The notes beneath the pieces were generated by a model that ran no database searches, was not told the origin of the DNA, and saw only the letters and a program-made list of their open reading frames with translations. The position numbers and the translations under genes were made by a program. From positions 64,001 to 128,000 of IMG/VR virus record IMGVR_UViG_3300049489_001336: 64,000 bases of DNA; one strand, 5' to 3'. Shown one piece after another: positions 4,276 through 50,051 of the stretch; within the stretch, counting starts at the first letter, position 1; every line of letters starts with the position of its first letter. The DNA comes from a virus.

Positions 4276-5772
4276 CTACTCGTTTTGAGTAGATGACAGG
4301 GCCGCAGTGCCTACGCCTAAGCCTGTCCCAAGACCCGCAGCACCCAACAATGCTTTATCTTGGTGCATACGCCCTGTAACACTTTCCTGTAACTTCCTAC
4401 TTATCAAAGGATTATTAAATGTTCCTGGTGTAGGATTAGATTCTATCAAACGAAAAGTGCCGTCAGGAAGTTCCGCGACATCAAATGCTTGATGAAGCGG
4501 GGCGTTATCGTAGTGCGATGTTAAAGGCTTATTCACTTTGCTAACAAAGTCTTCTAAAGCTTGGCGTCTATCCCCCGTAACGGGCATATGCGCAAAACCG
4601 CCTTCGCCTATTCCAAGGCTCGAAGACATCCTGTTCCACGCATCACGTATTTTGCCTTCAGGCAAACGGCGATGTGTCGATGCAAAGGGGACGCCTTGAA
4701 CCGTATGTACACGATACTCATTTTTGATGGGTATCTTTTGTTGAAGAATAAACCTGTTCGGGTTCTTCGCAATATCCTGCCAACGAGAATCCTTTAAGTC
4801 CGTTTTATTACTGACGAATGATGCGACATCGCCAAGGGACTCATCAACGGGTTTTATGAGCCACCCTTCCGGTAAATTTTTCGCTAAATGATTTTGAAGA
4901 GCATTCACATCTCCGTTAAATGCTTTCAAAACGTCCTGCATCTTTTCAGTCTCGGGAATTACGGCAGTGCCATCGTCTAAGTGTTCACGCACCTGTTTGA
5001 ACACGTCACCGAACGTGGCTTTATCCGCCATTGCTCCCGTTAAGCCTGAGTTCGCCGCATTTAGATCCACTTTACCTTGCACGGGGATCTGCGAAAAAGG
5101 AGATCCGTGGTGTAATACGGTGCTGTCTCTACGTAAGACTTCACGGTTTTTAGCAGCGGCAGCGACATCATCTGAAATGTCGTCAGCGCCGTATAAAACG
5201 CGACGTACAGCTCTCCCCAACGCCGAACCCGTAGGTCGATGCGTGGCTACTTCAAACGGGAGATCCTTCGCTTTTTCTTGGAGCTTCTGTAACGCAGGAG
5301 AGTCACTCGGTTTGAATCGACGTAAATATTTATACGCGGGATACATCGCGGCAGCGCCTAACCCTAAGCCTGTCAAAGTATCCTGCGTATCCCAATCATT
5401 TGCGAGCTTTACGCCTAACACATGGCATGCTGCTTTTTTACCTTGGGTATAGGGAACAGACTCTCCCACTGTATCAATAAACGTGGTAGAGGCTGCAGCA
5501 GGGCTCGGGGGACGGCTGAGAGTTTGCGGCCCTACGTTTAGAGACGACGAGGGCGGCGCTCCAGCGCCTAGCTGTTTGGTTACTGGCTGAGCAGCCAGGC
5601 GTGGTGTATTTTGCGAAACGCCGTATGATGCACCAGGTTTGCGCCGTAGATACTTACCTAGGCCGTAAGCGCCGAGACCCAGCGCCCCTACGCCAAGAAC
5701 AGACCCCCATCCCAGTCCTTGCTCTTTTTGGGATTGCTGCGGGTATTGTTGATTTTGATATGGGTTATTCAT
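4276..5772 (-). CDS. ATP-grasp (RimK-like) enzyme with Gly-rich hydrophobic segments and an internal copy of the shared G-x3-A-x3-LG motif
   Basis: ATP-grasp motifs WLIKP, FILQQKI..NEYRV, AFDV and LIESNPTPG; hydrophobic GxxxG helices near the N-terminus, middle and C-terminus; internal YTQGKKAACHVLGVKLA. Confidence 0.75.
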   Translation of the reverse strand: MNNPYQNQQYPQQSQKEQGLGWGSVLGVGALGLGAYGLGKYLRRKPGASYGVSQNTPRLAAQPVTKQLGAGAPPSSSLNVGPQTLSRPPSPAAASTTFIDTVGESVPYTQGKKAACHVLGVKLANDWDTQDTLTGLGLGAAAMYPAYKYLRRFKPSDSPALQKLQEKAKDLPFEVATHRPTGSALGRAVRRVLYGADDISDDVAAAAKNREVLRRDSTVLHHGSPFSQIPVQGKVDLNAANSGLTGAMADKATFGDVFKQVREHLDDGTAVIPETEKMQDVLKAFNGDVNALQNHLAKNLPEGWLIKPVDESLGDVASFVSNKTDLKDSRWQDIAKNPNRFILQQKIPIKNEYRVHTVQGVPFASTHRRLPEGKIRDAWNRMSSSLGIGEGGFAHMPVTGDRRQALEDFVSKVNKPLTSHYDNAPLHQAFDVAELPDGTFRLIESNPTPGTFNNPLISRKLQESVTGRMHQDKALLGAAGLGTGLGVGTAALSSTQNE

Positions 5773-5778
5773 AAAACC

Positions 5779-6432
5779 TCACATGAACCCGCGCATCTCT
5801 TTGTAGAGTTGATCTATTTTAGCTTGGTTAGCCGCAAATTCTGCTTTTTGCTTATGCCCCATTGCAGCATGCTCACCAACCCCTGCAACATCATCAAAAA
5901 AATGCCCTACATGTTTTGGGTTATTGACAAACTTAAAAGCTTCTTCTGCAACAGCAGGGTCCATACCTACACGACGTGCGTTATCCGGGTGTAGGTATGC
6001 TTGCATCTTCTTCAAATTAGGTGCGTTTTTACGCGCATTGTTTAGCGCTTCCTGGACTTGTGGACTCAAGTTAGTGAAGTCCGTTTTAACAGGGCGGCTA
6101 CGCCCTCTCAAAAAATCGATTTCTTGTCGACGCAAATCATTTAAATAACGTTTAGCACCAAAGCCCAGCGCACCCGTGCCTAGTCCGTATACCCCCGCGA
6201 AGACTTTCTGTGCGGTAGGGTGGTCTTCAAGTAACGGGTCATTATAGACGCCCACGCCTGCAATTGCTCCAGGAACAACACCATGGGCAATTTCACTCGC
6301 GACGGGAGCTGCCTTTTCCTTGACAAACTTGGCCGCTTGTTCTTTGAAATTAGGAACAGGCGCTGCCGTTTTTGCAAAACCAAGGACAGCGAAAGCACGC
6401 CCTGCCCCGGCCATATAAATCTGATCTGCCAT
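5779..6432 (-). CDS. Gly-zipper membrane protein with shared N-terminal motif and a J-domain-like HPD segment
   Basis: N-terminal YMAGAGRAFAVLGFAKTAA; two hydrophobic helices; KKMQAYLHPDN...AEEAFKFVN resembles J-domain helices II-III; paralog of 48740..49171. Confidence 0.65.
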   Translation of the reverse strand: MADQIYMAGAGRAFAVLGFAKTAAPVPNFKEQAAKFVKEKAAPVASEIAHGVVPGAIAGVGVYNDPLLEDHPTAQKVFAGVYGLGTGALGFGAKRYLNDLRRQEIDFLRGRSRPVKTDFTNLSPQVQEALNNARKNAPNLKKMQAYLHPDNARRVGMDPAVAEEAFKFVNNPKHVGHFFDDVAGVGEHAAMGHKQKAEFAANQAKIDQLYKEMRGFM

Positions 6433-6456
6433 GGCCTAAGTATAGGCTAAAATTAG

Positions 6457-6529
6457 AGCCCCCTGTCGGATTCGAACCGACGACCGCCAGTTTACAAAAC
6501 TGGTGCTCTACCGACTGAGCTAAAGAGGC
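6457..6529 (-). tRNA. trnT: tRNA-Thr(UGU)
   Basis: Anticodon arm CCAGU-UUUGUAA-ACUGG, standard D and T arms. Confidence 0.95.
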
Positions 6530-6563
6530 GAATAGGCTAAGCCTACTCAAAGCCCCTTTCCCG

Positions 6564-7259
6564 TCAATCTATTTCTAGAGTGAACGGAGCAGGTGGCAAA
6601 TAACGCTCTACTTGGTCTGGGCGTAGAGCTTCTACGACAGCTGATTTACGGACAAAGTTTTGCCGGCCAGGTCCTACACCGTCAGTTTCAAAGCACTCGC
6701 CTGTGCGAATATTCTTCGCACTACGAACAGGAACTACTTCCTTAGGCGAGCGGATAATCTCCGCGCCTTCTTTAATAGCCCAACCCGGTGAACTGCTAGA
6801 GTCCGTCCATACCTCCTGATAACGAATTCCTACAGGAACCACTACGTACGGATCGGAGTCCGTACAGCCCGTAGTCCCGTGATATTCACTGGTGCTCCTT
6901 GACAACTGGTTTGGGTCCAATTCTCCTGTCAAAGGATCCAATAAAGCATACTCAAACCCCAAACTGTCTTTGAATATCCTCTCCTTCACTCCGTGAATTG
7001 GCGCCAGTTCGCCATTGGCATCGCGCCATTTTGGACCGCGTGCGTCCCCAGGATCTCCCTTCGGACCTTGCGGGCCTTGGATTCCTTGAGGGCCTTGGGG
7101 CCCAGGTTCACCTTGAGGTCCCTGAGGTCCCTGAACTCCTGCTACGCCGTCATTCCCGGTAGCGGCTAGCGTGGGTTCTGCTGCTTTGTTTTGCAGCCCC
7201 AGGTCATCGCCGCCGCACGCCACCACAAGCAATAGGCAGCACAAAAATAGACTTTTCAT
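6564..7259 (-). CDS. collagen-like repeat lipoprotein
   Basis: Signal peptide with lipobox (MKSLFLCCLLLVVAC-GGDD) and about 13 consecutive Gly-X-Y triplets rich in GPQ; SD GGTGGGG before ATG 7259. Confidence 0.8.
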   Translation of the reverse strand: MKSLFLCCLLLVVACGGDDLGLQNKAAEPTLAATGNDGVAGVQGPQGPQGEPGPQGPQGIQGPQGPKGDPGDARGPKWRDANGELAPIHGVKERIFKDSLGFEYALLDPLTGELDPNQLSRSTSEYHGTTGCTDSDPYVVVPVGIRYQEVWTDSSSSPGWAIKEGAEIIRSPKEVVPVRSAKNIRTGECFETDGVGPGRQNFVRKSAVVEALRPDQVERYLPPAPFTLEID

Positions 7260-7311
7260 AATCCCCACCTTCCTTGACACTTGTGCCACAAAAAGGGGCG
7301 TTTTTATGAAG

Positions 7312-7710
7312 TTAAGGACTGAGTAGTCTCAGTACTTTTTTACGAAAATAACCAGGCGCGTTCTCCTCTTTTTCGAGGATTTTATTTACCTCGGTGAGCG
7401 TTAAGTTTTGTACTTTGTAGAGATCTGCAAAAGGCTGCGGATCCATTACTTTCCAAAACCTGCGACGCGCCGCCCGCGCCTGTGTCAGCGGTGCATTAGC
7501 CATTGTCAACAGAAAGCGGTCTTCAGGAGACAACTTCTGCTTTGCAGCATCAATAGCTATCTCCAACGCTGTTAATTGAGGCTGAATCGCTTCAACCTCT
7601 TCTGCGAAATACTTTGTGATCGGCGCATCGGGCGCGATCTTGTGTAAGAACCACATAATGACAGACCACAGGCCCATCGAGGTTCTATGAACCTTAAGCA
7701 TGGTAGACAT
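7312..7710 (-). CDS. hypothetical protein
   Basis: 132-aa ORF with SD GGGAG. Confidence 0.6.
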   Translation of the reverse strand: MSTMLKVHRTSMGLWSVIMWFLHKIAPDAPITKYFAEEVEAIQPQLTALEIAIDAAKQKLSPEDRFLLTMANAPLTQARAARRRFWKVMDPQPFADLYKVQNLTLTEVNKILEKEENAPGYFRKKVLRLLSP

Positions 7711-8155: not shown

Positions 8156-9604
8156 ATGCCTTCGAAACTTTCAGCGTTGATAACGCCTTTACAGCCTCAT
8201 CAGCAACGCGTTTTAGAACGTATACAGGACCCGAACCAGCCGGGGCTTGTCGTTGCCCATGGCTTAGGTTCTGGAAAAACGTTGTCTTCGATCGCGGCGG
8301 CCGACGCGTTACAAATGCCCACACACGTAGTAGTGCCGGCAGCGCTTAAAGCAAATTACTTAAAAGAACTACAGAAACATCGTGTTAATCAAGAAGAGGA
8401 TTTCAACATACACTCTTTACAGCGAACTTCGCGTGTCCCTGACGTACCTAATTTAACCGATAGTGCCCTCATAGTTGATGAAGCCCACAGACTTAGGGAT
8501 CCTAGCACTAGAGGCAATCAACTATTTAAACACTTGCGCGCTAAGAAGCGCCTACTTTTAACTGCAAGCCCTGTTTATAACCACCCTGCCGATTTATCGT
8601 CATTGGTCAACCTCGCTGCAGGCAGTAAACAACTTCCTGAAGATCGAAAAGACTTCGAAGCCGCCTACACAGGCATGGAAAAGATAAGCCCCGGTTTCTG
8701 GGCTCGTTTACGCGGCGTAAAACCGGGTGAACGTCAAGTCCTAAGAAACAAGGCTCATCTACAAAAAATACTTAATAAATGGGTTGATTACCACGAAAAT
8801 ACAAGTACCGAAGATTTCCCCTCTACTAAAGAGGAAATCGTAAATGTTCCAATGTCTGAAAAACAACAGGAAATCTACGATGGCCTGTTAAACAAAGCTC
8901 CTTTTTGGATTCAATACAAAATCAAGAATAACTTGCCTCCTACGAAGCAAGAAAAGCAGTTAATCAACTCATTTTTAACGACACAGCGGCAGGTCGCAGG
9001 CAGTCCCCACACATTCGTCCAAGGGATGTCCGTGGACGAAGCGGTGAACCACACGCCTAAGATTCAAGAAGCTTTGAAACGTCTCAAAGCACAAATGCAG
9101 GCAAATCCTGACCACAAAGCAGTTGTGTATTCTAATTATTTAGATTCAGGGCTTGAGCCCTATCGGCATCTTCTTGAAAAGGAAAAAATCCCCTATGGGA
9201 TGTTCACGGGGAAGATGAAGAAAAAAGAAAGAGATCAATTAATACTTGATTACAACGCCAACAAAATTAAGGCGTTGTTGTTGAGTTCTGCAGGCGGGGA
9301 AGGTCTGGACTTAAAAGGTACCCGTCAAATCCAAGTCTTAGATCCGCACTTCAACGAAGAAAAGATTCGGCAAATCATTGGGCGAGGCGTTCGTTATAAG
9401 AGCCACACTCATTTGCCTGAAGACCAACGCAACGTGCTCATTGAGCGTTATTTGTCCAAAAATAGACCGACATTTTGGAACAAACTGACAGGTGGGAACA
9501 AAGACACTACCGCTGAAGAATACTTGGATCAATTGTCCAAGGAAAAGCTGCGGTTAAATGATCAAGTTATTGAACTACTCAAACAACGTAATAGTACAAC
9601 ATAG
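8156..9604 (+). CDS. SNF2-family SF2 helicase/ATPase
   Basis: Motifs I (HGLGSGKT), II (DEAH), III (TASP), V (SSAGGEGLDL) and VI (QIIGRGVR). Confidence 0.9.
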   Translation: MPSKLSALITPLQPHQQRVLERIQDPNQPGLVVAHGLGSGKTLSSIAAADALQMPTHVVVPAALKANYLKELQKHRVNQEEDFNIHSLQRTSRVPDVPNLTDSALIVDEAHRLRDPSTRGNQLFKHLRAKKRLLLTASPVYNHPADLSSLVNLAAGSKQLPEDRKDFEAAYTGMEKISPGFWARLRGVKPGERQVLRNKAHLQKILNKWVDYHENTSTEDFPSTKEEIVNVPMSEKQQEIYDGLLNKAPFWIQYKIKNNLPPTKQEKQLINSFLTTQRQVAGSPHTFVQGMSVDEAVNHTPKIQEALKRLKAQMQANPDHKAVVYSNYLDSGLEPYRHLLEKEKIPYGMFTGKMKKKERDQLILDYNANKIKALLLSSAGGEGLDLKGTRQIQVLDPHFNEEKIRQIIGRGVRYKSHTHLPEDQRNVLIERYLSKNRPTFWNKLTGGNKDTTAEEYLDQLSKEKLRLNDQVIELLKQRNSTT

Positions 9605-9720: not shown

Positions 9721-11181
9721 ATGTCAATACCCCACCACAATGGAAGATTGCGCGCACTGTTAGCCTTAGGCTTCAAGCTAGCTGAATACGCCCCCGGCAT
9801 CCCCGATAAGTCACGGGTCGTCCCGTTGCCCGACATCCGTAAGCCGACGACGTGGAAGCTCAGTATCCAAGAACATAATGCAGACCGCGCAGGAAAGCAT
9901 CTTGACTTGCGTCTTGTCGACCCCCGTACGGGCCATGCACATTCTTGGGCAATTCCGCGCGCGGAACTCCCCGCGCCAGGGAAAGCGGTTCTCGCAATAC
10001 AGCAGCCAACGCACACAGCGGATTACGCGCTTAATTTTGGAAAAAACAAAGTCGACGTAATTCCTGAAGGGTATGGCAAAGGCAGCGTACGCAGCCATAC
10101 GCTTGCAGACGCTGATGTGTTTCACAGTACGCCCGCGCCAAAAGGTACGCGTGTACGCTTTAACGTATACAAATCAAAAGGCCCCGAAGAGTACGCAATT
10201 GTTCGCATGGGGAACGGCTCTGATTTGCTCGTCAATAAAACTTTGACTAGGGAGCGCGTACCCCAGTTGTTATTGGGCGAGAAACCCAAAACAAAAGAAG
10301 TAGACGTTACTAAAGTTAATCCGACGTCCAAAGATGAAGTTTGGATGCCGAAGTACGATGGGGCGCATACTTTAGTTTTGTTGAGTGATGAAAACAAAAT
10401 TCCAAGGCTTTTTTCTTATCGCATTCCTAAGAAACATACGGCAGGGCTTATAGAGCACACGCACAAAGCCCCTGACTTATTGGTACGTCGTGTACCTAAA
10501 GACCTGAAAAATACGGTGCTACGTGCTGAGACGATAGGCATTACATCTGAGGGGAAAGCGATTCCTGCGTCAGACGTGGCGGGATTACTCAACGCGACTG
10601 TAACGAACTCCCGAGAACGCCAGAAAGAGCTTAACGCAAAGCTTGTCCCTGTACTCTTTGATATCGAAAGTATCAAGGGTAAAAGCGTCCAGCATTTACC
10701 TTTTGAAGAACGCTACAAGTTACTCAAAGGCATTGGAGAGCGTTTACAACTTCCGGTCACGGACACCGCTTTTGATACCGCAACCAAAGAAAAACTTCTC
10801 AAACACATACGAGAAGGAAAGCATCCTCACACCTCTGAGGGTGTCATGATACAGTCTCTATCGACGAACAGTCCTGCGCAGAAGGCCAAGTTTAGACCAG
10901 ATCACGACGTGTACGTGCGTGAGATTTTCGAAGCTGTAGATGCACGTGGCAAAGGTTTAGGCCGTGCCGGCGGTTTTGAGTATTCATGGACGCCCCGAGG
11001 ACCTATCGTAGGCCGTGTAGGAACAGGCTTTGACCACGCCTTAGCCCGCGACATGTTTATTAGCTCTAATAAATATACGGGGCGGGTCGCCAAGGTGGAC
11101 GCCGAACGAAAAAACCCAAGTGGGTCTTTATCTAAACCAAGTTTTATCGCTTGGCATGTGGATAAAGGAAAACAACTATAA
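9721..11181 (+). CDS. ligD: LigD-like 3'-phosphoesterase fused to ATP-dependent DNA ligase (NTase + OB fold), no polymerase domain
   Basis: PE motifs IQEH....HLDLRL, SWAIP, H..DYA, YGKG; ligase motifs KYDG, EGVMI, KAKF, VGTGF, PSF..W..DK. Confidence 0.85.
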   Translation: MSIPHHNGRLRALLALGFKLAEYAPGIPDKSRVVPLPDIRKPTTWKLSIQEHNADRAGKHLDLRLVDPRTGHAHSWAIPRAELPAPGKAVLAIQQPTHTADYALNFGKNKVDVIPEGYGKGSVRSHTLADADVFHSTPAPKGTRVRFNVYKSKGPEEYAIVRMGNGSDLLVNKTLTRERVPQLLLGEKPKTKEVDVTKVNPTSKDEVWMPKYDGAHTLVLLSDENKIPRLFSYRIPKKHTAGLIEHTHKAPDLLVRRVPKDLKNTVLRAETIGITSEGKAIPASDVAGLLNATVTNSRERQKELNAKLVPVLFDIESIKGKSVQHLPFEERYKLLKGIGERLQLPVTDTAFDTATKEKLLKHIREGKHPHTSEGVMIQSLSTNSPAQKAKFRPDHDVYVREIFEAVDARGKGLGRAGGFEYSWTPRGPIVGRVGTGFDHALARDMFISSNKYTGRVAKVDAERKNPSGSLSKPSFIAWHVDKGKQL

Positions 11182-11199: not shown

Positions 11200-11637
11200 A
11201 TGCATTACGAAAATGGTCGCGCAATTGCTTTGATGTCTTTGGGTATTAAAAAAGCAAATGCGCTTGTGCATGTTCCAGGAATGGGGCGTACTCTCCGGCC
11301 CGGCTTATCTAACGAGGCAAAAGCACGATTGCTTACCGGAATTACCGGCACTGCCGGAGGTGCCGTAGGCGGCGCTCTTGTAGACGATGAGGACCCGCTG
11401 CGCGGAGCTTTGTGGGGCGGAGGCGTCAACGCTGCAGGAGGCCTGGTAGGCGCTCTCGCTTCGCGGCACCTAAAAAAGAACGAGCCAGCTGTCCATCGAA
11501 TGTTAGAACCAATGTACGAGAATATGTTGAAGCGCCCAGGAACCGCTGCAGGAGTAAGTGCAGGTTCTGGAATGCTGAGCGGTGCTATAACTTCTGGTAT
11601 TGCGAGCAGGTTCCGCGGTACTCCTGAACAAGGCTGA
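11200..11637 (+). CDS. Gly-zipper membrane protein with shared N-terminal motif
   Basis: HYENGRAIALMSLGIKKA followed by three GxxxG-rich hydrophobic helices. Confidence 0.7.
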   Translation: MHYENGRAIALMSLGIKKANALVHVPGMGRTLRPGLSNEAKARLLTGITGTAGGAVGGALVDDEDPLRGALWGGGVNAAGGLVGALASRHLKKNEPAVHRMLEPMYENMLKRPGTAAGVSAGSGMLSGAITSGIASRFRGTPEQG

Positions 11638-24588: not shown

Positions 24589-25074
24589 TTAATTATTAAT
24601 TTCTTGAAACATCCAACCCTGGGCGGCCTTAATCGCTTCTTCGGTGCCCATGAGTTGGCGCTTCTTATCGTCCACGACGAGAATCAACAAAGCACGCTGT
24701 GCCATCCGGCTAAGTACGCCCTGCCCACGTTGAAAATCCCCGCGCGCAACCATGACCGGAATTCCGGTGGCTTCTGTGAATTCCTGTCCTGCAGGATGAA
24801 ACATCACCCCGCATTTATCAGGGCGGTCTTCTTCCCAAAAAACTTTGCGGGAATCTTTATGTTCCCAGGTGGCTTCATCGATCCACAAACAAACAAATTC
24901 CTGACAGCTAGCAGGCCGGTCAGCGTAGATTCCACATGAAGTCCCTGTACAGTGCGTACAAGTCACGTTCATGGGCTTATCTAATTCTGTGACCCCCATC
25001 AACGTACAGCACGCGGTGCACTCCCCGCACGCACGCTTCAAAGAGGTAAGTCTTCTTTTATCTTTCTTAGCCAT
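24589..25074 (-). CDS. YkgJ-like Cys-cluster (CxxCxxCC) protein
   Basis: CGECTACC...C.HC....C.IY..RP..C..F.C.W. Confidence 0.8.
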   Translation of the reverse strand: MAKKDKRRLTSLKRACGECTACCTLMGVTELDKPMNVTCTHCTGTSCGIYADRPASCQEFVCLWIDEATWEHKDSRKVFWEEDRPDKCGVMFHPAGQEFTEATGIPVMVARGDFQRGQGVLSRMAQRALLILVVDDKKRQLMGTEEAIKAAQGWMFQEINN

Positions 25075-25979
25075 ATACGAACTCGACTTGGCATACAGTC
25101 TTCAGAAGCAGAATGCTCTGCAAACTTGTGCAATCGCTTCAACTGAACAGGTTGTACTTTAAATTGTGACTTCATCAATTGGGCGTAAGACATATCCTTG
25201 TTCGCAGCCGCCACGATAAGTGGCAACGCTTGCACTGCGTGATTCAAGGACACATCCGAATAGCGCATTTCACGCATCCAAGCTTCATAGCCTTCACACA
25301 AAGGATACGGAGCAGGAGCCACATCAACTCGCGTCCCTTTCACTTTCATATAAATGTACGGCACACTCATTTATCAAGACCCTTCAACCAAGGTAGGAGA
25401 AGATAGAACCAAAAAACGACCCCAAGCGCCATACCAAGTAAGCTTGCTACGATAAGCAGAGCATCCACAGAGACCCGCGGCGGTTCCTCTGCGCGAATTT
25501 CAACCGGAAGTCTTTTCTGAGGACGCCGAATCCGTCTTCGTTTGATAAATTTCATCCTGCGTTTCCTCGGCGGATTCTTCTGCATAGAATAGTTTGTACA
25601 GTGCCTCTTTTAAGTCCGTGCGCAACACAAGAAGGTGCTGCGCCATGTACGTATTTCTTTGCGCATAGCGATCCGCCCACGCGTTGAGCACCGAAAACAT
25701 CCGATGGAGCGGTAGCACCGGTTGGCGATAATAATGGCTAAGCGCCCTAAGAAGCTCTTCAGCTTCTTCGTCGTTTTCGATTTCAATCCTGAGTGGCATC
25801 CGTGGCCTCGTCTTTGACTTCTTTGATATCCACAACGGTAATCCAATCGCGCTTACCTGCTACGCGTTCAAAAAACAAAGAACGCGCTGCCTCAGGGTCG
25901 TCCGGTTTGGCTACCACGAGTTGCGTGTGAGGGCCGTTGTCTAAAACCATGTATTCAACAACGTACGCAGAGGTAGCCA

Positions 25980-26300
25980 TCAGCTCTCCAAATCAATATG
26001 CGCCATACACTTGCAGCACATGTTGTGTTTGTCAGAGCACGCAAAACAAATTTTTGGAGCTGCCCCATTGGGATGCTGCACTTCAACATCGCAGATACGG
26101 CACGTATACTTGACAAAGCCATGTGTTACGAGTCCGCCGCGACGAAGATAAAAACAAACCGTGCATAAACGCGATGCGTGTCGCTGTGTTTTATCTTTGT
26201 CTGCTTTTAGCTCTGTAAGTTGTTTTTCTCTTTCTTCGATGGCCTTTTTTGCATAATACGTATTTATGCGTGCTGTCTCCTCAAGGTCGTCCAGAGCCAC
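25980..26300 (-). CDS. Cys-rich putative zinc-binding protein
   Basis: CTVC, CRIC, CFAC, CCKC pairs. Confidence 0.6.
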   Translation of the reverse strand: MALDDLEETARINTYYAKKAIEEREKQLTELKADKDKTQRHASRLCTVCFYLRRGGLVTHGFVKYTCRICDVEVQHPNGAAPKICFACSDKHNMCCKCMAHIDLES

Positions 26301-31072: not shown

Positions 31073-31953
31073 TCATCGATTTCGAGGTGCATCAGCGATC
31101 ACCTTCAACGCTGCTTCCAGCGCTTTACCTGCGTGGGAATGATGGAAAATCAACGCCACAACGTGGGACACCTTAAGGCCGTCTTCGTATGTATATGTCG
31201 AGGTGACAGACGCTGTTCTATTCACGGGGCTCACCACGAACCTAACACCTTTTAAACTAGGGTATGCACGCTGCGCCAATTCGTCTAAATCTTTGGCTTT
31301 ATCTTTTTTAGCGTCTTTTTTTGTGACTACTTTGGCGCGTTTTTGGGGTGCATTACGCTTTGACACACGTGGCATGTCCAAGGACCTTTTCCTAAGCCAA
31401 ACGTACGAAAACGACAGTGCTTACAGAAAAGCTCTACGGCTCTGCTGTTCGCAGGTTCTTGCTTTGTGACATAGCGAGAACCTTTCAGACTATCGTAGCT
31501 CCTTGTCATACACCCCTCAGCTAAAAAACGAAAGCGACGCACCTGACATGCCAGACTGTAGTCTGGGCTAGTCGGAATCGCCGCTTTCAAACAAAGCAAC
31601 GCTTTGTCATGTTCTTATACCTAAATTCGTTTGTTTTTTATTGAACCACTGGCTTTGGGCTTTTTAGAGCTCAAGTGCTTTACAACAAAGCCTACATTGC
31701 GCAGCTCTCGTTGATATTCTTCGAAGAGGTCTTCGAACACTTCTTCGAAGTTTGCAACGCACGTATTGTGTTTTATCAACACTGCCGCAGTTCCGAGTGC
31801 TTGCAGCTCGCGTTTGAGCCCGTTTAAATCATAGCAGTAAACCGCGTTACGTTTGATATGCAAAACCACTTGGCCTTTTGACCACTGGGCTTTGTCTAAA
31901 ACTGCGTCCATGGCATCGAACGCAGTATCGCCTTGTTCGTCGATAAGGTCCAT
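31073..31953 (-). other. hypothetical ORFs 31073..31381 and 31621..31953
   Basis: Co-directional ORFs with SD-like sequences; no motif recognised. Confidence 0.5.
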
Positions 31954-32098
31954 GTGCCCTCACTAAAAATTAGCGTACCCGTACAGCAACATGGCGACGG
32001 CAATTAGTACAATCACAACCAAGGCAGGTACAGGGTTGCAGACAAAGACAATGACGTCACAAACAAAATCAAGTAACTCATCCGTTACTGTGGGTTCT

Positions 32099-32608
32099 TC
32101 ATCCGACATCGTCGACAAGAATCCAATCGTTTGCGAGAACATCTGTTTGCGACGCGAACCAAGGAACTAGTTTATTGTCTGCCGTCTTCATGACGATGAA
32201 CGGCAACCATGTTCCTACGCAGGGATCGATTTCACGGACTTTGAATTCCTTGTCCGAATAAAGGTCCACGTAGCGTAGCCACATGCCTTTCCCGTTCCAG
32301 CCGGTGCGTGCGACGCGTTTTCCTTGTTTAAGTAATGTGATGGCATCCCCGAAATTCATACATTCCCCTTTCACCGTACGCCTTACCCCTAAGGCGCCAG
32401 GTTCAATGTCTTCTAAGTCTAACAACGCAGGCGCTTTAGGCTGACTTACATGCCAAGCTTCAATTTGTGCATGTTCGTCGGCGCTAAGCGTCCACCAAAG
32501 GTCACTGAGCTCTTCGGCACGTCGGGACTCTTCTGCGTCCGACAACGGCCTGTCTAATTCCAGTTTTATGAACAAATCGAGATAGCGCTCAACACTCATG
32601 GTGTTCAC
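32099..32608 (-). CDS. tad2: DUF2829 / Tad2-like anti-Thoeris sponge domain (32099..32359) in frame with an 83-aa N-terminal extension
   Basis: MNFGDAI.LLK.GKRVAR.GWNGKGMWL...MKTADNKLVPW.ASQTD.LA.DW; internal SD AAGGGG before ATG 32359. Confidence 0.85.
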   Translation of the reverse strand: MNTMSVERYLDLFIKLELDRPLSDAEESRRAEELSDLWWTLSADEHAQIEAWHVSQPKAPALLDLEDIEPGALGVRRTVKGECMNFGDAITLLKQGKRVARTGWNGKGMWLRYVDLYSDKEFKVREIDPCVGTWLPFIVMKTADNKLVPWFASQTDVLANDWILVDDVG

Positions 32609-37983: not shown

Positions 37984-38523
37984 TTAAACACGACGATCGC
38001 CCCAGAAGAAATAGTCGGTGTACAGCATAGCCACTGCGCGTCGCACATACGAGGTATCTTGGTACGCCATGACGGCTGCTTTGAGTTCTTCCGCAGCGGT
38101 TTTAATGACATCGACATAGCTGTGACTTGCTTCGGTCCACAGGGCATAAGCCCAGGCGGGGTCTGGTTCTCCTTCTCCAAGTTTTTGCAGCAAAGACTTT
38201 TCTACTGCTTGCTGTTCTCTAGCCGCTGCAGGCGAAGAGTTTTCAATCCAGTTAATCAAGGTAATAGCGTGGCCCGCATACTCTTGGTAGTCGATAATCA
38301 TGAGTTTATTGTACAAGTATTCCTGTAAATAATCGTAGGGTTCTACGGGTTGCTTGGGAAACAACGCGTGTTTTTCTGCGACGTAGAGACCGCGCTCCAA
38401 CAAAGACGTTACAGCTGTTTCTTGTTTACGTTCAGGGGGATCACAGTAATTGCATACGGCAGAGACAAACAACAACGTCATTTTTCGATAGCAGCCAGGG
38501 CAATAAAGTACGGGGTCAGTCAC
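37984..38523 (-). CDS. hypothetical protein, paralog of 38532..38987, with extra N-terminal CxxC...CxxC
   Basis: Shared C-terminus YTD(Y/H)FFWGDRR. Confidence 0.7.
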   Translation of the reverse strand: MTDPVLYCPGCYRKMTLLFVSAVCNYCDPPERKQETAVTSLLERGLYVAEKHALFPKQPVEPYDYLQEYLYNKLMIIDYQEYAGHAITLINWIENSSPAAAREQQAVEKSLLQKLGEGEPDPAWAYALWTEASHSYVDVIKTAAEELKAAVMAYQDTSYVRRAVAMLYTDYFFWGDRRV

Positions 38524-38531
38524 AAACCCTC

Positions 38532-38987
38532 CTAAAGGTCAAAACGACGATCGCCCCAAAAGAAATGGTCTGTGTATCCCATGGCTAACGCTTTTTGAGC
38601 CACTGCAGGAACAGACTCCGGTGGAAAAGGAGGGCTGTCTTCTTTTTCCATTTTACATAATTTGGTGTACACGTGATGTGTTATGCCCCAAATTTCGTAC
38701 GCAGCAGGTTCTCCAACCTTGGTTAACGTGACGAGATCTGAGATAAATATCTCAATCTCTTTTTGTTTTTCAGAAAGCTCCGCAGAGCTTTCAATTATAT
38801 CTATCAAAGTCAGCGCTGCCGCAAGGTGTTCACTAGGATCTGGAATACCCAGTACACCTTTGAAATAACGGTCCAGGTATTCGATAATACTCGCTGGTTT
38901 TTGTTTAAATGCGGCGTGGTTTTGCGCAATAAAATCACAAAACTCTTTGTCTTTAGGGCTTGTGAACTTATCAGGGACTAAAAGCAT
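38532..38987 (-). CDS. hypothetical protein, paralog of 37984..38523
   Basis: TLI..IE.S, GEP...Y..W and YTDHFFWGDRR shared with the neighbour. Confidence 0.7.
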   Translation of the reverse strand: MLLVPDKFTSPKDKEFCDFIAQNHAAFKQKPASIIEYLDRYFKGVLGIPDPSEHLAAALTLIDIIESSAELSEKQKEIEIFISDLVTLTKVGEPAAYEIWGITHHVYTKLCKMEKEDSPPFPPESVPAVAQKALAMGYTDHFFWGDRRFDL

Positions 38988-39832
38988 TACAAAACCCTCC
39001 TTAACAACGGTTTACGCCGATGCTCAACTATGATTTTTAATTCAGTCCTTGTCTAGGGGACATCTACCCGGAACACTTCATCGAACATTTCGAGGTCAAC
39101 GATGTTAAACACATCAGGTGTCTCATTGCGTATTTCCCGTACCTTTCGTAATAAACGAACACGTGCATTAGCAAATTTAATCGCACTACCCGTCGTGCCT
39201 TTTCCAGTATGCACGATTGGGTAAAGGGCGAAAGCCGCAGCCCACACAAGCTTTTCAGTGTCATTCATGTAGTCGCTTTGCCTTCTGCTTTGGCTGCTTC
39301 TTGCGCGTTGAGCGCGTCACAAATACGCTTCGCCCATTTTCTTGCAACAGGCTCCGTGTCAAATAAGTCTCCAGGGGTCATACACACGGTTTGGCCGCCT
39401 AAACAAACATGGTACGTCTTCATACCATCTTCGTCATCGACGATGTCCATGTAAAAAGGTTTGTTGTCAGCACTCATCGTCCATCTCACTCCGTAACACG
39501 GGGTAAACCGTCGTGAGCGCATCTTTCTCTGACACGAGTATTTTCACAATATCCATGTGCCCTTTGTGCGCTTCTGCGCGCGTAGCGTAGCGCTTCACGG
39601 TTTTATCCATGACGCCACCAAAGACCATGGTTTCGAACAACAAAGGTTTTTCTTGGTTGTTATACGCATGGTTAATGCCCAAAAAGACGGTCGAAACAGA
39701 AAGCCTAGCGTCGTCTGTTTCGGTGTACAGCAATTGCGTATTATGCGTTGTAATCCACTCGATGTATTGCATCAGCGTTACATTTTGAACGGTATCCCCG
39801 TCAAAAGTATAAAAGGGCGACATTGATTCCTC

Positions 39833-43179: not shown

Positions 43180-43614
43180 TTAGAAAAACTCTTTGCCACC
43201 TTGGTTGTATAGCTGCACCAACGCCACATTAAACGGCGCTTGGTATTTGCTCGCCACTTGGTGCGCCACCAAGATGGTAGACGGTAAGACTACCTCTGCG
43301 GCCAACGCAAAGATTTCTCCACGACCATTGTACATCGGCGTATCTACGCCCCGGTCGATGCGCTTCCAAACCTTGTAGACGCGCTTCATGTTAAAGCGCT
43401 TGCTTAGACGCGTATACGAGCTTTCCAGCGCGTAGAAACTACGCCAACGCTCGATGTGTCTTTTGAACTGTTTATACGTGCGAACTTGTAGGAGTTCTGC
43501 ACGGTAATATTTCCCTATGTTGACGTTGTCATCCGAATAGAGAAACGCGCTGGCGCCTACTTTGTTTAAAACCTCGACAACGGGTTTTACATCATAGAGA
43601 CGCACCATGCTCAA
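43180..43614 (-). CDS. hypothetical protein
   Basis: 144 aa, coupled to the upstream gene. Confidence 0.55.
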   Translation of the reverse strand: MSMVRLYDVKPVVEVLNKVGASAFLYSDDNVNIGKYYRAELLQVRTYKQFKRHIERWRSFYALESSYTRLSKRFNMKRVYKVWKRIDRGVDTPMYNGRGEIFALAAEVVLPSTILVAHQVASKYQAPFNVALVQLYNQGGKEFF

Positions 43615-44018
43615 GTCTCAAGTGCTTCAATGCGCTTCCTGAGCTCTTCCTCGGTAAGCGCGCTGAGCTTTCCTGCCTGCTTTTCCGCAAGGACCTCAAG
43701 CAGTTTCTCTTTCTCAATTTTATTGTCTGCGCGCTTCTTGGCCGCTTCTTCTTCTTTCAGCCGCACATTGATGATGTGCTTGACGATGTTGAGCGCGGTT
43801 TCCAACTTGATGTGCAAGTGGTTACGCGCAGTTTCAACAAAGCTTTCTTCCGTGGCATCTTTCAAGGCTTTGTTTGCGGTTTTTGCCACGGCATTGAGAT
43901 TGAAATCATCTTTGGAACGAAGCGGCACATCCCAAAGCTGCTCGACACTGAGCTCGCCTTTGATAGATGAAAAGCGAAGCTTATAACGTGTCGCGTACTC
44001 GAACATTTCAGAACTCAT
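43611..44018 (-). CDS. coiled-coil phage hypothetical protein
   Basis: FE.A.R.KLRF.S.KG.LSVEQLWD.PL N-terminus, then heptad-rich helix. Confidence 0.65.
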   Translation of the reverse strand: MSSEMFEYATRYKLRFSSIKGELSVEQLWDVPLRSKDDFNLNAVAKTANKALKDATEESFVETARNHLHIKLETALNIVKHIINVRLKEEEAAKKRADNKIEKEKLLEVLAEKQAGKLSALTEEELRKRIEALET

Positions 44019-44287
44019 GGTTTTTCTCCTCGATCAAACACGTGAAAAATGAGGTTCCCCTCTAATTGTTGAAACGTACCTACGTACTTTCCAGGATTTT
44101 CAGGGAGCGAATGCCCTGTGCCCGCAACGCGAAAGTAACGGTCTACTTTGGGAGCCTCCGGGTCTACAAGCGCCCAGATACAGGGAACCCTGTGTTGTAC
44201 TTGAACCGTGAGAATCTCCGCTCCCACGGGCATCGTAATAATTACGGAATCGTCGATCGAAAATGGGTACTTGTAAATCGTTTTCAT
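44015..44287 (-). CDS. phage hypothetical protein
   Basis: IYKY.....MP.GA.IL.VQ.Q....C.WA.VDP pattern recalled from phage proteins. Confidence 0.6.
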   Translation of the reverse strand: MKTIYKYPFSIDDSVIITMPVGAEILTVQVQHRVPCIWALVDPEAPKVDRYFRVAGTGHSLPENPGKYVGTFQQLEGNLIFHVFDRGEKP

Positions 44288-46380
44288 GTTCCTACCAACA
44301 CGTTGAACAATCGTTGCTTTTTACCTTGTTGGGTTCGCACGATAAAGGAGTCCTTTTTGGTCGATGAAAACCCCAGGCCCGCGAGTTGATTGTCCGAGGG
44401 CTGGCATTTGGTTTTATCAGCGATAACTTCAAAAACTTTGCGATGCGGCTCTAGGCGCGAGTGCAGGAACTCGTTGTAAAAGCCGCGAATTTCTTCATCA
44501 CATTTAGCGCCCTCCAGCACAAAGAATGTGTGTTTGTTACCCACTGCGTTATCCCCCCAGTAATTGGGACTGAGCATCACAGCGTTGACTTTGACGTATT
44601 GTTCGGTCGTGAGTCCCCATTTCTCTTTCGAGAGATTGGACGACGTAATGGCAGGGTCTCCCACATCCACACGTTCAATACTGCCATTTTTGAGGTAGAG
44701 CGTAGCAACGGTCACGTCTTGACGTGTACGCACAATTTTGTTGTAGGAATAATGGGAAAGTTTACCGCCGCTTTCAGTCTCCACGACAAACCCAGGATTG
44801 CTGGTCTCACGCTGAGAGTAATTATTCACCACGATGCGATACGCGCCGTCGGGCGGGTTAGTCGCCCAAACAATGTTTTCCACAGGCTCTCGTGTGGTAC
44901 CACTGCCTGCGTTCATGTCGACGTCGAGCACACCCCCGGTCCAGCCGCGTTTGTTCCCGAAGTAAATATGTTGCAATGTGGTTTTGACTCCACGACCTGC
45001 AGGCTCATGGATGTGTAAATCCAGGTCGTCGAAGTTGAACCATGAAAGAGATACACGAAGGATGGCGCCGTCGACTTTGCCGCCTGCTTTCTTCACGCGC
45101 TCTTTGATGGAGTCCGCGACATTGCCTCCGTAAGACCATGCAAAGTCATTGGACCAACGAAAGAGTTGCTTGGGCTCGGGATGCGCCGGCGCCGTAATGG
45201 CCATGAGGTTACCCAAGTGCTCTCCTTTGACCAAAAGCTCAAGGCTTTGCGTCTCAGGCAGGACTTTGGACATGAAATCATCGATGCTGATAGACTCAGC
45301 ACGTTCTTCGTCTTTGGCTATGTCACGGGCGGCGTGGGCAGTGGCGTGGTGCATCAGCACGTCGCCAAGGCCGCCACGCATCAGCGGTTTCACGGAACCA
45401 TCGACCCACTTGACATCGTTCACAGAAACGTCGCCAATCACGGCAAAGCGGCGTTCCAGAGCCGCCTCAAGCCCAAGCTCTTCGATGGTTTCCATGGCCT
45501 TTTTGACCATGCCAGGCGTAATCAGCGCGGTCGTACGCTTGTAATTTTGGGGCGCGACTTTGGTTTCAAAACTCGCTACAGCTTGTTCTATATCTTTGCC
45601 TTCCGATAGGTCTTGGACGAGTGTTCCAATCACCGTGTTACGAAAACGCGCCGCAGGACTCTGCGCATTGGCCCAAGCAAAAATACTTTGGTCTTTCGGG
45701 CTACTCTTCAAGAACGTATTTTGTAGCTTTTGAAATTGCTGAAGAGCAGAGCGATGTTCTTGGCCTCGGTACAAACTACTGGCGTCCACCAACGAAAGCA
45801 CCGTGGACACTGCCTCAGGCGTTAATTCCCGAAGACCTCGTTCAAAGACCTGCACCGTCGTACGGTAATTACCACATACGGTGTCAGGCGACGCTACACG
45901 GAGCTTACGCGGAATTTCTTCGGTGTGAAGGTGTCCCCACGTCGTGACCTGTTGGGTTTCTTTGTCGAGAGACCTTGTTTGCACGGCGCCAAACCGTAGC
46001 TCATTGACCCCAACACGAAACAAATCACGAATGCCTACTGAGAGCACCGCGTTTTTCAAGGCTGTGGCGACGTCCGCGTAAAAGTCAGGTCCTTTCTTCG
46101 CGGCTTGGTCCCAGACCGTGTGAAGCTTACCTTTGTCAAAAGACACGACGTTGCCCGCACGACGAATAAACTGCCTGCACATGGAGCAGTCGTGCTCTGT
46201 CTTGGTCTTGAAAATGGGATTGGTGCCTTCAGGAAACGAGGCAAGATAAAGCGCATACAACGCGTCGCCCTCGATGTCGGCGACAAAGGCTTCTTCGGAA
46301 TTGACAATTTCACGGAAAGAAGCAGCGACCCACGTATGGAATTGTTTGCTTCTCTTTTCAGCGACGGCATATTGCGACAT
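44284..46380 (-). CDS. large phage protein with a C-terminal YfaP/DUF2135-like segment
   Basis: 698 aa; LSWFNFDDLDLH..EP...LDVDMNAG....PVENI.W. Confidence 0.6.
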   Translation of the reverse strand: MSQYAVAEKRSKQFHTWVAASFREIVNSEEAFVADIEGDALYALYLASFPEGTNPIFKTKTEHDCSMCRQFIRRAGNVVSFDKGKLHTVWDQAAKKGPDFYADVATALKNAVLSVGIRDLFRVGVNELRFGAVQTRSLDKETQQVTTWGHLHTEEIPRKLRVASPDTVCGNYRTTVQVFERGLRELTPEAVSTVLSLVDASSLYRGQEHRSALQQFQKLQNTFLKSSPKDQSIFAWANAQSPAARFRNTVIGTLVQDLSEGKDIEQAVASFETKVAPQNYKRTTALITPGMVKKAMETIEELGLEAALERRFAVIGDVSVNDVKWVDGSVKPLMRGGLGDVLMHHATAHAARDIAKDEERAESISIDDFMSKVLPETQSLELLVKGEHLGNLMAITAPAHPEPKQLFRWSNDFAWSYGGNVADSIKERVKKAGGKVDGAILRVSLSWFNFDDLDLHIHEPAGRGVKTTLQHIYFGNKRGWTGGVLDVDMNAGSGTTREPVENIVWATNPPDGAYRIVVNNYSQRETSNPGFVVETESGGKLSHYSYNKIVRTRQDVTVATLYLKNGSIERVDVGDPAITSSNLSKEKWGLTTEQYVKVNAVMLSPNYWGDNAVGNKHTFFVLEGAKCDEEIRGFYNEFLHSRLEPHRKVFEVIADKTKCQPSDNQLAGLGFSSTKKDSFIVRTQQGKKQRLFNVLVGT

Positions 46381-47044: not shown

Positions 47045-47129
47045 AGTCTCTCCTTGTTAAATGAGGGCTATAGTCTTTTACCGTAGAGCAGCTAAAAAGA
47101 AGGATAAGCACTCTAAGTACGCGCCACGC

Positions 47130-48659
47130 TCAGAAATTCAAGTCGTACACGTTGTCATACTTTTCGCGCGGATACGTAGGGCTGAGGCGCTCCGCGATGG
47201 TCATCAAGATCTTTTCAAAGCTACGGTCATCGCAGCTCAATTTGCTGCACACCCATACGGTGTCATTGGTGTAGCGCTTGAAGGCAACGATCACCTGCGA
47301 GGCCTGGTAAATGCCATCGCCATCGTGGGCCACTGCGCCAAAGGCAAAGTAGTCCCGTCCGTGATGGTCTTTGCCGTAAATCAGCTTGTTGTTTTTCACG
47401 GCGGCGTACGGAATTTTGTCGATGTAATCGGTGGGACCGACCCATTCCTTGGGCGCGTCCATGTGAACCAAGATCTTGTTATGTTTGATGGCAAAGATGT
47501 TGAGAAGGTCGACGTTCATGTGAATTTCCCCTTGTTAAAACCCTATACCAGGGAAAGAGGGAGATTTATGAAGGCTAAAAAAGGGCTGTAGCCCAAACGA
47601 CTCAAGCGGAGGCCAAAGCCATATCAATGTGCCGATGCATCGCTCGCAAAAGTTCCATAGGCTGTTTGTGGTCCACGTTGAGAACTTCTTTATTCATGGC
47701 AAACAACGCCTCTTGGAACTTCTTGTCAAACAATGCTTTGTCCGAGGTAAGTGCCCGTTTGACCATGCGCTTCAGTCCTAGGTACTGCAGCGACAACAAG
47801 AGACAAGCAAACTCTTTAAGAGCTGGCGCGTTTTCTTTGACGGAATGAAGCGTTGCTTGAGTGATCATGGCAATTCTCCCTGTTAAAACCCTATACCAGG
47901 GAAAGAGGGAGATTTATGAAGGCTAAAAAAGACAAGAAAGCCACGGACCGTTCCGTGGTTAATGCAATTGCGCCTGCCGCAACGTGGTCACAGTTTCCAC
48001 CAAACGAAGCACGTTCGCAGCCAGATCGTCGACTTTCTTTTCGTTGTCTTCGAGAACCAGCATTAGTTGTTCCGGAGTCACGCCGACGAGGCCTTGACCC
48101 ATGCTCAGATTGATGACTTTGAGCTTAAACACGACTTGCAGGAGCTGCGTGCTGTAGCTTTTGACAGCGCCCAAATCTTTGTTTTGACAAGCACTGTCAA
48201 GGTGGGTCAACAGCACGTTGGCTTTGATGATTTCTGCGTCGAACAATTGAATGAGGCTCATGGGGTTTCTCCTTGTTAAAACCCTATACCAGGGAAACAA
48301 AGAGAATTATGAAGAGCTAAAAAAGGCCGTGGCCTCACAATATTCAAACGCTGGACCGTAACATGTCAAAGACATGTTCACGCGCGTTGGAATTGTTTCC
48401 GCGCAACGCTCGCAAATTCTCGTACCACACTCAAAGCGTTGCGCCTTATATGTGCCGCACGTTTATGGAACGCAATGACCAACATAGACGTGCAAAGCAT
48501 ACTTGCAAAGAACCACCCTGCGAAGATCTCGTAAGGCCTATTGAGTTCTAACGCAGCTTGGATCTGCGCATCCGTCATAGGTGACGGCGGGGCTTCCACG
48601 TTCACAAATAAGCTGGCGATACTGAGAACAACCGAGAAGGCTGAGGCGTGCTTTTTCAT
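47130..48659 (-). other. four single-gene cassettes (47130..47519, 47602..47868, 47959..48261, 48378..48659)
   Basis: Each starts immediately after a promoter-RBS repeat; the last has two hydrophobic segments. Confidence 0.65.
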
Positions 48660-48739
48660 GGTAATTTCTCCTTGTTAAAACCCTATACCAGAGAAACAGG
48701 GAGATTTATAAAGCGTTAACCAAAGGCTATAATCCAGCT

Positions 48740-49171
48740 ATGTCACATTATGAATTAGGTAAACAGACAGCTTTGGTTAAACTGGGGTTTGTTAAAGCGG
48801 CAGGGTTACAGCCGTCTACGCGAGTCATGCTTTCAGAGATCGCGCATGGAGCTGTTCCAGGTCTTGCGGCAGGGGCAGGTACGTACGCCGCTACAGACGA
48901 CCCGATGCTTGCTGCAGGAGCGGGACTGGGCGTGGGTTCGCTTGGGTATGGCACAAAGCTTATGCTCAATCATCCAAGGAAAAGGGATTTGGACTTTGTA
49001 AGTCGCATGCATAGGAACACACGGCAAGGCTTAGACGATATCAATGGCAAAATTAGAGCAGGCGCTGACCCTGCTATGTATGACGGCGTAAAAAAGATTA
49101 AGGAAACGCAGCTTAAACGGGACAAGGAAGAGATGGATAGACTACAAAGTAAATTACAAGGACTTCTTTAA
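48740..49171 (+). CDS. Gly-zipper membrane protein with shared N-terminal motif, paralog of 5779..6432
   Basis: HYELGKQTALVKLGFVKAA; EIAHG.VPG..AG.G.Y...GLG.G.LG(F/Y)G.K..LN..R....DF shared. Confidence 0.75.
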   Translation: MSHYELGKQTALVKLGFVKAAGLQPSTRVMLSEIAHGAVPGLAAGAGTYAATDDPMLAAGAGLGVGSLGYGTKLMLNHPRKRDLDFVSRMHRNTRQGLDDINGKIRAGADPAMYDGVKKIKETQLKRDKEEMDRLQSKLQGLL

Positions 49172-49196
49172 GAATAAAATGATGTAAACGTTGGGG

Positions 49197-50051
49197 TTAC
49201 TCTTTACCATCAACGGTATCAAGTAATGCAGTAGCTCCGTACGTTCCAAGGGCTACTGCAGGTAACTTCATTGCAGTGCCTGCGTAGGTGCCAAAGGCAG
49301 GTAACAACGTCTTAATACCTTTTACCATATCTCTGCGTGTGGCTCCGTTGCGGTACATATTCAATAAACCATGCCCACTGGCATAAGCTTCTTCCGCAAG
49401 TACGGGCACCGTCGGTAGCACAGAGCTGGCTAAATAAGCGTTGCGTTTCGTTTTACTTTCCTCGCCAGGATTCGATTTTTCAGCGTCATACGCGTATAAA
49501 CCTGGAATAAGCCCCAACCACGGTTTACTGAACGTGCTATACCCTAAATTGCCCAACATATGCATTATTTTAGGGGTTTTTTCAAAGTAATGTTTATGCC
49601 CTAACTCATGCGCCAAAGTAGCTGGATTTTTCTGGAATGACGCCTCGCCTAACGTAATCACGTTTTTCTTTGAACTAAAGGATCCCCGGTATGGGGACGT
49701 TCCAGGTTTCCCCCGTTCAACGTTATGTCCTTGAACGAGCTTTTCATAAATCTCTTTTTCTCTAGCCAAATCGTCTAAGTGCGCCTGGCTAGGCTTCTTT
49801 GCATTGGGCGTTAAATGTGCTGTATCTGCATAATAAGATTTATTCAATTCATCCACGATAGCGTTATTACTATGCGTCCCGACCGCGTCACCTAAGAGGT
49901 AACCTGAGTAACCTCCCCCTGCTAGTAGACCCGCATTGAGAATTCTCTGGTCTTCATCACTTAATTCTTTAGCTACCGGCGCAGTAGATGAGCCTGTACG
50001 CATACCCAGTTTGGTAAGAGCAAAATGACGGCCTGCAATATAAGAATTCAT
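49197..50051 (-). CDS. zincin metallopeptidase with shared N-terminal motif
   Basis: SYIAGRHFALTKLGM; AHELGH and downstream EEAYAS (gluzincin-like third ligand); hydrophobic segments. Confidence 0.72.
   Translation of the reverse strand: MNSYIAGRHFALTKLGMRTGSSTAPVAKELSDEDQRILNAGLLAGGGYSGYLLGDAVGTHSNNAIVDELNKSYYADTAHLTPNAKKPSQAHLDDLAREKEIYEKLVQGHNVERGKPGTSPYRGSFSSKKNVITLGEASFQKNPATLAHELGHKHYFEKTPKIMHMLGNLGYSTFSKPWLGLIPGLYAYDAEKSNPGEESKTKRNAYLASSVLPTVPVLAEEAYASGHGLLNMYRNGATRRDMVKGIKTLLPAFGTYAGTAMKLPAVALGTYGATALLDTVDGKE

Follow-up and report, generated by a model that had tools for sequence, protein, structure and literature searches.

The 64,000-nucleotide window analyzed here spans bases 64001 to 128000 of the 189,879-bp virus contig IMGVR_UViG_3300049489_001336 (the whole contig is called the genome below), which derives from an uncultured freshwater phage of ~190 kb. 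It codes for six proteins that share a short peptide motif, hereafter the tag. The strict form of the motif, [YH]-x2-G-x3-A-[LIVMFC]-x2-L-G-[LIVMF], has exactly six matches in the six-frame translation of the window, all of them at the genes named in the original prediction, which was made from the letters of the DNA. These genes, an SNF2 gene beside them, and the tagged genes outside the window are as follows.

Window coordinates:
4276..5772 (-): 498-aa protein with an internal tag, PYTQGKKAACHVLGVKLA, at residues 108-125; motif DNA 5410-5451
5779..6432 (-): 217-aa Gly-zipper protein with an HPD tripeptide, N-terminal tag then A-K-T-A-A; motif DNA 6376-6417
8156..9604 (+): SNF2-family helicase, untagged, with the start MPS-KLSA-L; Pfam SNF2-rel_dom, E 9.5e-20
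9721..11181 (+): tag, K-L-A (9775-9783), E-Y-A-P-G-I-P, LigD-type 3'-phosphoesterase and ATP-dependent DNA ligase; motif DNA 9733-9774
11200..11637 (+): 145-aa Gly-zipper protein, N-terminal tag then K-K-A; motif DNA 11206-11247
48740..49171 (+): 143-aa Gly-zipper protein, N-terminal tag then V-K-A-A; motif DNA 48749-48790
49197..50051 (-): 284-aa HExxH zinc peptidase with Gly-zipper segments, N-terminal tag; motif DNA 50001-50042

Genome coordinates, outside the window:
24538: 66-aa tagged protein, between the two polymerase chains
25143: 80-aa tagged protein, between the two polymerase chains
41451: 207-aa tagged protein, 1.6 kb downstream of the capsid gene end

Tagged genes and their genomic setting

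The carriers in the window occur as adjacent gene pairs, and the SNF2 gene is the first of a run that continues with the ligase and a Gly-zipper protein. The 9721-11181 protein has Pfam matches to LigD_N (E 1e-5) and DNA_ligase_A_M (E 1.6e-5) that narrowly miss the curated cut-offs, its phosphoesterase (PE) domain matches PDB entries 2lj6 and 3n9b by sequence, and precomputed Pfam assignments across its homolog family agree with the ligase label it had been given. With a PE domain and an adenylation domain containing the K-x-D-G motif (KYDG), it is predicted to be an end-repair ligase of the LigD type. The zinc peptidase label likewise holds, with template modeling (TM) scores of 0.56 to 0.64 to Zn_peptidase_2 among structural matches in the Atlas; these matches begin at residues 33 to 47, and the tag thus lies outside the fold. 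The "J-like" label of the 217-aa protein has only the HPD tripeptide in its favor, and neither Pfam nor the Atlas supports it.

The 498-aa protein consists of an N-terminal Gly-zipper, an S/P-rich linker, the internal tag, another Gly-zipper, an ATP-grasp-like domain and a C-terminal Gly-zipper. Its ATP-grasp label is weak (Pfam R2K_3, E 9e-4, below the cut-off), and a PDB sequence search with the protein found no match. A GTG codon at window 5467-5469(-), six codons before the Y of the internal tag, would give the usual distance from start to tag; no ribosome-binding site is visible for this codon, and a shorter tagged isoform initiated there is only a possibility.

The carriers had been described as unrelated. 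Their cargo folds are indeed distinct, with the qualification that the 5779-6432 and 48740-49171 proteins are paralogs. Degenerate copies of the tag are also present at genome 28515 and 53676, the latter confirmed by homology to a fully tagged protein of a related phage, G001.

The closest cultured relative is Salmonella phage Arash, which shares 41% identity in the major capsid protein, 35% in the first and 30% in the second chain of the RNA polymerase (RNAP), and 37% in the SNF2 protein, and in which the portal, polymerase and capsid genes follow one another in the same order. Neither the ligase nor the peptidase has a match among cultured phages by blastn or tblastn. At least 132 IMG/VR contigs code for a capsid protein 65 to 88% identical to that of the source phage, and several of these are complete genomes of 180 to 198 kb. 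Searches of IMG/VR for related loci with the ligase and with the protease as queries returned none; the capsid protein query did return loci. The related genomes compared below are G001 (capsid protein 79% identical to that of the source phage), G003, G006, G008, G009, G010 and G011.

An N-terminal peptide gained and lost independently of its cargo

The strict pattern occurs nine times in the genome and not once in 20 shuffled genomes. A hidden Markov model (HMM) built from the nine instances separates them cleanly from all else, with scores of 16.6 to 24.4 bits against 9.5 bits for the next best open reading frame (ORF), and there are no indels among the nine, as had been noted for the six in the window. 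In eight of the nine the tag starts 2 to 6 residues past the start Met, with a stop codon 6 to 28 codons upstream; the ninth is internal, at residue 109 of the ATP-grasp-like protein. The Y/H codons in the window start at 6417(-), 9733(+), 11206(+), 48749(+) and 50042(-), and at 5451(-) for the internal copy. All of the synonymous codons occur at the invariant G, A, L and G (4, 4, 6 and 4 different ones), and mean DNA identity among the instances is only 44%; selection therefore acts at the level of the peptide. The same spread of synonymous codons rules out an RNA-level element or a DNA repeat.

Over 30 instances the consensus is x-Y-x2-G-[QRK]-x2-A-[LF]-x-K-L-G-h, and a Pro/Ala/Gly-rich stretch usually follows. 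AlphaFold2 predicts from the tag alignment a helix over residues 2 to 12 that ends at L-G, with a confidence score (pLDDT) of ~87 for the first ten residues, and the conserved Y, G, A and L line up along a single narrow face whose middle is made of the small residues. The modeled tag would be a short amphipathic helix whose narrow, small-residue face suits packing against a protein partner better than binding to lipid. A profile search of the whole library with a 32-residue tag gave eight matches at E ≤0.001, of which five are true, all starting at residues 2 to 5, and three are unrelated repeat proteins; so short a motif does not allow a census of the library, and such a search cannot tell whether it occurs beyond this clade.

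Tagged and untagged versions of the same protein occur among the relatives. The SNF2 helicase of the window starts with what had been read as only the tail of the tag (MPSKLSAL), and its ortholog in G001, 61% identical, carries a full copy, MSESYTQGRGDALLTLGIVKYA. The structural operon encodes, at genome 51955, a Gly-zipper protein that has no tag, and its G010 ortholog is tagged. Of the ~11 carriers in G001, six are encoded one after another, and two (24937-26148 and 31268-32245) are paralogs. The tag is kept in P0002, a 39%-identical homolog of the 5779-6432 protein in which K-T-S is also retained, in P0012, a homolog of the 49197-50051 peptidase in which K-M-A-A-S follows, and in 20 related contigs for the family of the 207-aa protein at genome 41451.

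The ligases provide the largest comparison. More than 337 homologs were found, many on contigs of 170 to 217 kb, and 337 share the same Pfam domains. For 90 of the 120 best homologs, those whose enzyme body starts with [EQ]-[FY]-A-P-G-I-P, the region preceding the body was classified: 42 have the tag, always at the N terminus, 31 a different or shorter extension, and 17 begin directly with the body. The ligase-body tree requires at least 9 switches between tagged and untagged, and at least 18 when all three states are told apart. Where NUDIX or other domains have been inserted, they sit between the tag and the ligase, and the tag remains at the extreme N terminus. The G003 ortholog has kept a diverged tag and gained a GNAT domain. 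Such natural insertions show only that different cargo is tolerated behind the tag.

The extensions classed as other frequently have the sequence [FL]-x-[DS]-E-L-x-K-[IL]-A, and a related peptide is widespread in G011 (IMGVR_UViG_3300044959_000131; 176,945 bp), whose capsid protein matches the profile at E 7.5e-29. This genome has no copy of the first tag and has seven of F-x2-E-[LM]-x-K-[ILN]-[AG], compared with 0.05 in shuffles. Most are found in small proteins unrelated to one another, 8 to 15 residues from the start codon; one copy belongs to the head module, between scaffold-like genes that adjoin the capsid gene.

Second tag in G011: [SA]-F-x-[DS]-E-L-[EQ]-K-I-A, on seven proteins, e.g., at 6880, 37142, 87107, 119037, 169275 and 172177

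A sigma-factor-like protein of G011 (38074-39039) also has an N-terminal extension that ends in K-L-S-A. As G011 has the second flavor and lacks the first, orthologous cargo has lineage-specific address peptides with the same K-x-A ending. That the two flavors are diverged versions of one peptide (A-L-E-K-L-G and E-L-E-K-I-A) is speculation.

The tag is thus a real element, selected as a peptide, N-terminal in position, and gained and lost independently of its cargo. As in T4, a short peptide at the extreme N terminus is common to unrelated proteins, in eight of nine instances here and in ~11 proteins in G001. The core of the original prediction, a modular tag on diverse cargo, stands on these tagged and untagged orthologs, the repeated changes on the ligase tree, conservation of the peptide, and its N-terminal position, with the ATP-grasp-like protein as the internal exception. 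We are confident, short of certainty, that such a tag is read by one partner.

The K-x-A junction and links to the virion

The original prediction held that K-x-A usually follows the tag and may be a maturation cleavage site. In the window K-x-[AST] follows five of the six instances, and in the ligases the junction is marked: K-x-[AS] lies within the last few residues before the body in 49 of the 73 with an extension of at least 10 residues, compared with 4.2 expected from shuffles and a maximum of 12 in 500 of them, and this holds for every type of extension. Two G001 paralogs also have the tag followed by K-I-A-A-S.

A related motif, K-x-A-S, is concentrated in the head module. The proteins encoded at genome 27230-42100 contain 20 copies, compared with 2.5 expected, a density 10 times that of all other proteins of the phage; the G001 head module has 11 (2.3 expected) and that of Arash, gp217 to gp225, has 12 (1.8 expected), an enrichment of 5- to 8-fold across the three genomes. 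In scaffold-like proteins that are only 36 to 40% identical across the relatives, conservation of the K and the A is 0.9 to 1.0, and the residue between them varies. A protease domain is encoded within the same module (genome 34943-36802) and is 39% identical to Arash gp222; scaffold-like genes lie at genome 36862-38395. On the simplest reading, the head maturation (prohead) protease of this group probably cleaves at K-x-A.

The positions of several carriers also point to the particle. Three strong and two degenerate carriers lie within the RNAP, head and structural operon, where the tagged families are those of 41451, 53676 and 51955 and of the two small proteins between the polymerase chains, which are conserved in G001, G006, G008 and G009. 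Proteomics of Arash virions placed both polymerase chains near the top in abundance and also detected a sigma factor, ligases and helicases, with the "DNA helicase" gp217 represented by 1148 spectra at 100% coverage (PMC10585845). Arash gp217 is the ortholog of the SNF2 protein in the window (37% identity, E 9e-102), and Gly-zipper proteins are abundant in the virion as well: the Arash virion proteins gp213, gp221 and gp224 are of this type, like tag carriers here.

Arash virions also contain gp140 and gp141, which are encoded far from the structural module. Their orthologs in the window (43611-44018(-) and 44284-46380(-); 44% and 46% identity, respectively) have no tag.

Several findings weigh against reading the tag as a virion-loading signal. 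Arash itself has no tag detectable with the HMM or by an unbiased comparison of N-terminal 12-mers, which yielded only a paralog family with a common ARRLVENLGLSW. As many as 116 of ~250 Arash proteins were detected in virions (PMC10585845), and low-count detections therefore mean little. All tag carriers come from uncultured genomes, and Arash is the only relative with virion proteomics. Most of the carriers in the window are encoded outside the structural module, the tag of the ATP-grasp-like protein is internal, and the two small genes between the RNAP genes would also fit docking on the polymerase. K-x-A follows only ~20% of the non-ligase tags and is found in few G001 carriers; cleavage therefore cannot be general, and some tags would stay on. 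A complex prediction pairing the tag alignment with that of the major capsid protein gave a score of 0.00, which, run without controls, speaks neither for nor against binding, and no receptor emerged. Support for the second part of the original prediction, virion loading with cleavage at K-x-A, is circumstantial, and consists of the conserved junction, the K-x-A-S of the head module, the operon location, and the Arash virion orthologs.

A few neighboring features deserve mention. A TAnAnT hexamer lies 6 to 8 nt before the ATG, with no Shine-Dalgarno sequence, in only 9 of 254 genes, giving leaderless-looking starts.

TAnAnT sites: window 5779-6432(-), 8156(+), 48740(+) and 49197-50051(-); genome 20145 and 187102

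These genes include the polymerase and head operon, the SNF2-ligase run, and three tagged genes; the hexamer is TATACT at 5779-6432 and TATAAT at 48740-49171, 6 nt before the ATG in both, and it is kept at the G001 polymerase gene. It was considered as a sign of expression timing and dropped, since the G001 carriers lack it. One of the sites precedes a gene for a 330-aa protein (genome 187102-188094(+)), with the same TATAAT-N6-ATG start as at window 48740; this protein has two K-L-A-S sites and may be another virion protein, without a tag. Elsewhere in the window, a tagged gene pair has as its neighbor 6564-7289(-), whose 241-aa product contains a collagen triple-helix repeat (Pfam E 6.5e-7), and about twelve consecutive ORFs of 150 to 175 aa occupy 58265-63967(-), at a lower G+C content (0.43).

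Candidate roles of the tag and known systems

We hold with middling confidence that the tag is a modular virion-loading propeptide with a protease site. It would be an address helix read by one common putative receptor of the assembling particle, and would route a fast-changing set of proteins into it: the end-repair ligase, the SNF2 helicase (in relatives), the zinc peptidase, the ATP-grasp-like protein, the Gly-zipper proteins, and the small proteins encoded between the RNAP genes. In the enzymes, the prohead protease would cut at K-x-A and free the mature protein, and the cargo would then enter the next host together with the DNA, where the Gly-zipper proteins could insert into membranes and the small proteins may tether the polymerase. 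Presence in the virion, cleavage and ejection are each inferred here.

A different partner is conceivable, if unlikely: the tag may dock its carriers on a hub other than the capsid, the phage RNAP or an early-infection complex, with K-x-A as part of the docking element. The two small tagged proteins conserved between the RNAP chains here and in four relatives would fit, as would the tagged SNF2 ATPase of G001, as bacterial RapA is an SNF2 protein bound to RNAP. The K-L-S-A ending of the sigma-factor-like extension in G011 and the TAnAnT hexamer shared by the RNAP operon and several carrier units point the same way. However, a polymerase would be a strange partner for an ATP-grasp-like protein, a membrane-type zinc peptidase or Gly-zipper proteins, and in all three genomes K-x-A-S is enriched specifically in the proteins of the head module. 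Moreover, if the polymerase is packaged, as in Arash, docking on it merges with virion loading.

It is improbable that the tags instead bind each other, in G-x3-A helix bundles that tie soluble enzymes to tagged Gly-zipper membrane proteins, in a membrane-bound complex of the infected cell. The G and A at i and i+4 on one face do resemble helix-helix packing motifs, many carriers have Gly-zipper hydrophobic segments, and carrier genes form runs (of six in G001), but bundling leaves the N-terminal position, the K-x-A junction and the carriers in the structural operon unexplained. Quite improbable, too, is an N-terminal cap or small domain that has spread by duplication within a fast-evolving family and has no common address function. 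Although there are two paralog pairs, one here and one in G001, and carriers cluster in adjacent genes, the cargo folds (SNF2, LigD-PE/ligase, Zn_peptidase_2-like and Gly-zipper) are unrelated, orthologs differ in tag state, and the structural match of the peptidase leaves the tag out. A signal for secretion or membrane insertion, either a Sec-type peptide whose site resembles A-x-A or an amphipathic helix that binds the membrane, has hardly any likelihood: the tag is N-terminal, ~20 residues long, partly hydrophobic and followed by the small-x-small-like K-x-A, and many carriers look membrane-active, but its hydrophobic run of 7 to 9 residues is interrupted by a conserved K or Q (x-K-L-G) and leaves no continuous h-region of the ~10 to 15 residues expected of such a signal, there is no RR motif of the Tat kind, ATP-dependent DNA enzymes (the ligase and SNF2) would not be exported, and the conserved face has small residues, not the bulky hydrophobics typical of lipid-binding helices. 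None of these alternatives accounts for both the N-terminal rule and the link of K-x-A to head proteins.

Virion loading by such a tag would extend the logic of two known systems, the capsid-targeting sequence (CTS) of T4 and DarB of P1, to 9 to 11 proteins per genome. The T4 internal proteins IPI, IPII and IPIII have an N-terminal CTS (PMC9024508, PMC3012670, PMC9958956). As with the tag, different proteins have a short N-terminal peptide in common. A motif that also marks head proteins comes directly after the T4 peptide and, as the candidate site K-x-A, after part of the tags, and in both cases the cargo would travel with the DNA. The tag differs in being longer (~16 residues, Y-x2-G-x3-A-L-x-K-L-G-h) and of another sequence, with K-x-A as the putative site rather than (L/I)-x-E. 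Its carriers are also more numerous, 9 to 11 in each genome against three internal proteins, and large enzymes and Gly-zipper proteins are among them; many of the tags have no site, they come in lineage-specific flavors, and they are known from sequence alone.

DarB of P1 is a large helicase-containing protein with an N-terminal signal of fewer than 30 residues; it is packaged in the head and injected, and the signal is transferable in P1 (PMC9024508). That signal is known on one protein, and a consensus across many proteins is not described; loading depends on the helpers Hdf, DarA, DdrA/B and Ulx (PMC9024508). No helper proteins of the P1 kind were identified here. Arash has the same layout of RNAP genes within the head module and the same K-x-A-S enrichment there. 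Its virions contain RNAP, helicase, sigma factor, ligases and Gly-zipper proteins (PMC10585845), and it differs in having no recognizable tag.

The tag also differs from the address peptides of encapsulin cargo in its consensus, its N-terminal position, and the distance of most carriers from the capsid gene, and the complex prediction with the capsid protein gave no support for binding. Encapsulin cargo-loading peptides are short, contain Gly and Leu, and dock varied enzymes inside an HK97-fold shell; they are usually C-terminal and are not removed.

Only tentatively can these observations be generalized to the large and mostly uncultured set of 170- to 220-kb phages with their own RNAP, which may use a readable cargo code, an interchangeable, lineage-specific helix in at least two flavors plus a K-x-A site. 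By this code a rapidly changing cargo (the repair ligase, SNF2 helicase, peptidase, Gly-zipper proteins and polymerase adaptors) would be loaded into the head, released and co-injected. If the tag is a virion-loading signal, the injected proteins of this group of phages would be predictable from sequence alone, and large environmental phages would be seen to use T4-style capsid targeting for far more proteins and in a more modular way. K-x-A would then be what a family of prohead proteases recognizes, that of cultured Arash included, where it is directly testable, and a defined helix with its cleavage site might serve as a handle by which foreign proteins are packaged in phage heads. If the partner is another one, such as the phage polymerase, the tag would still mark a hub-and-client system in these barely studied phages.

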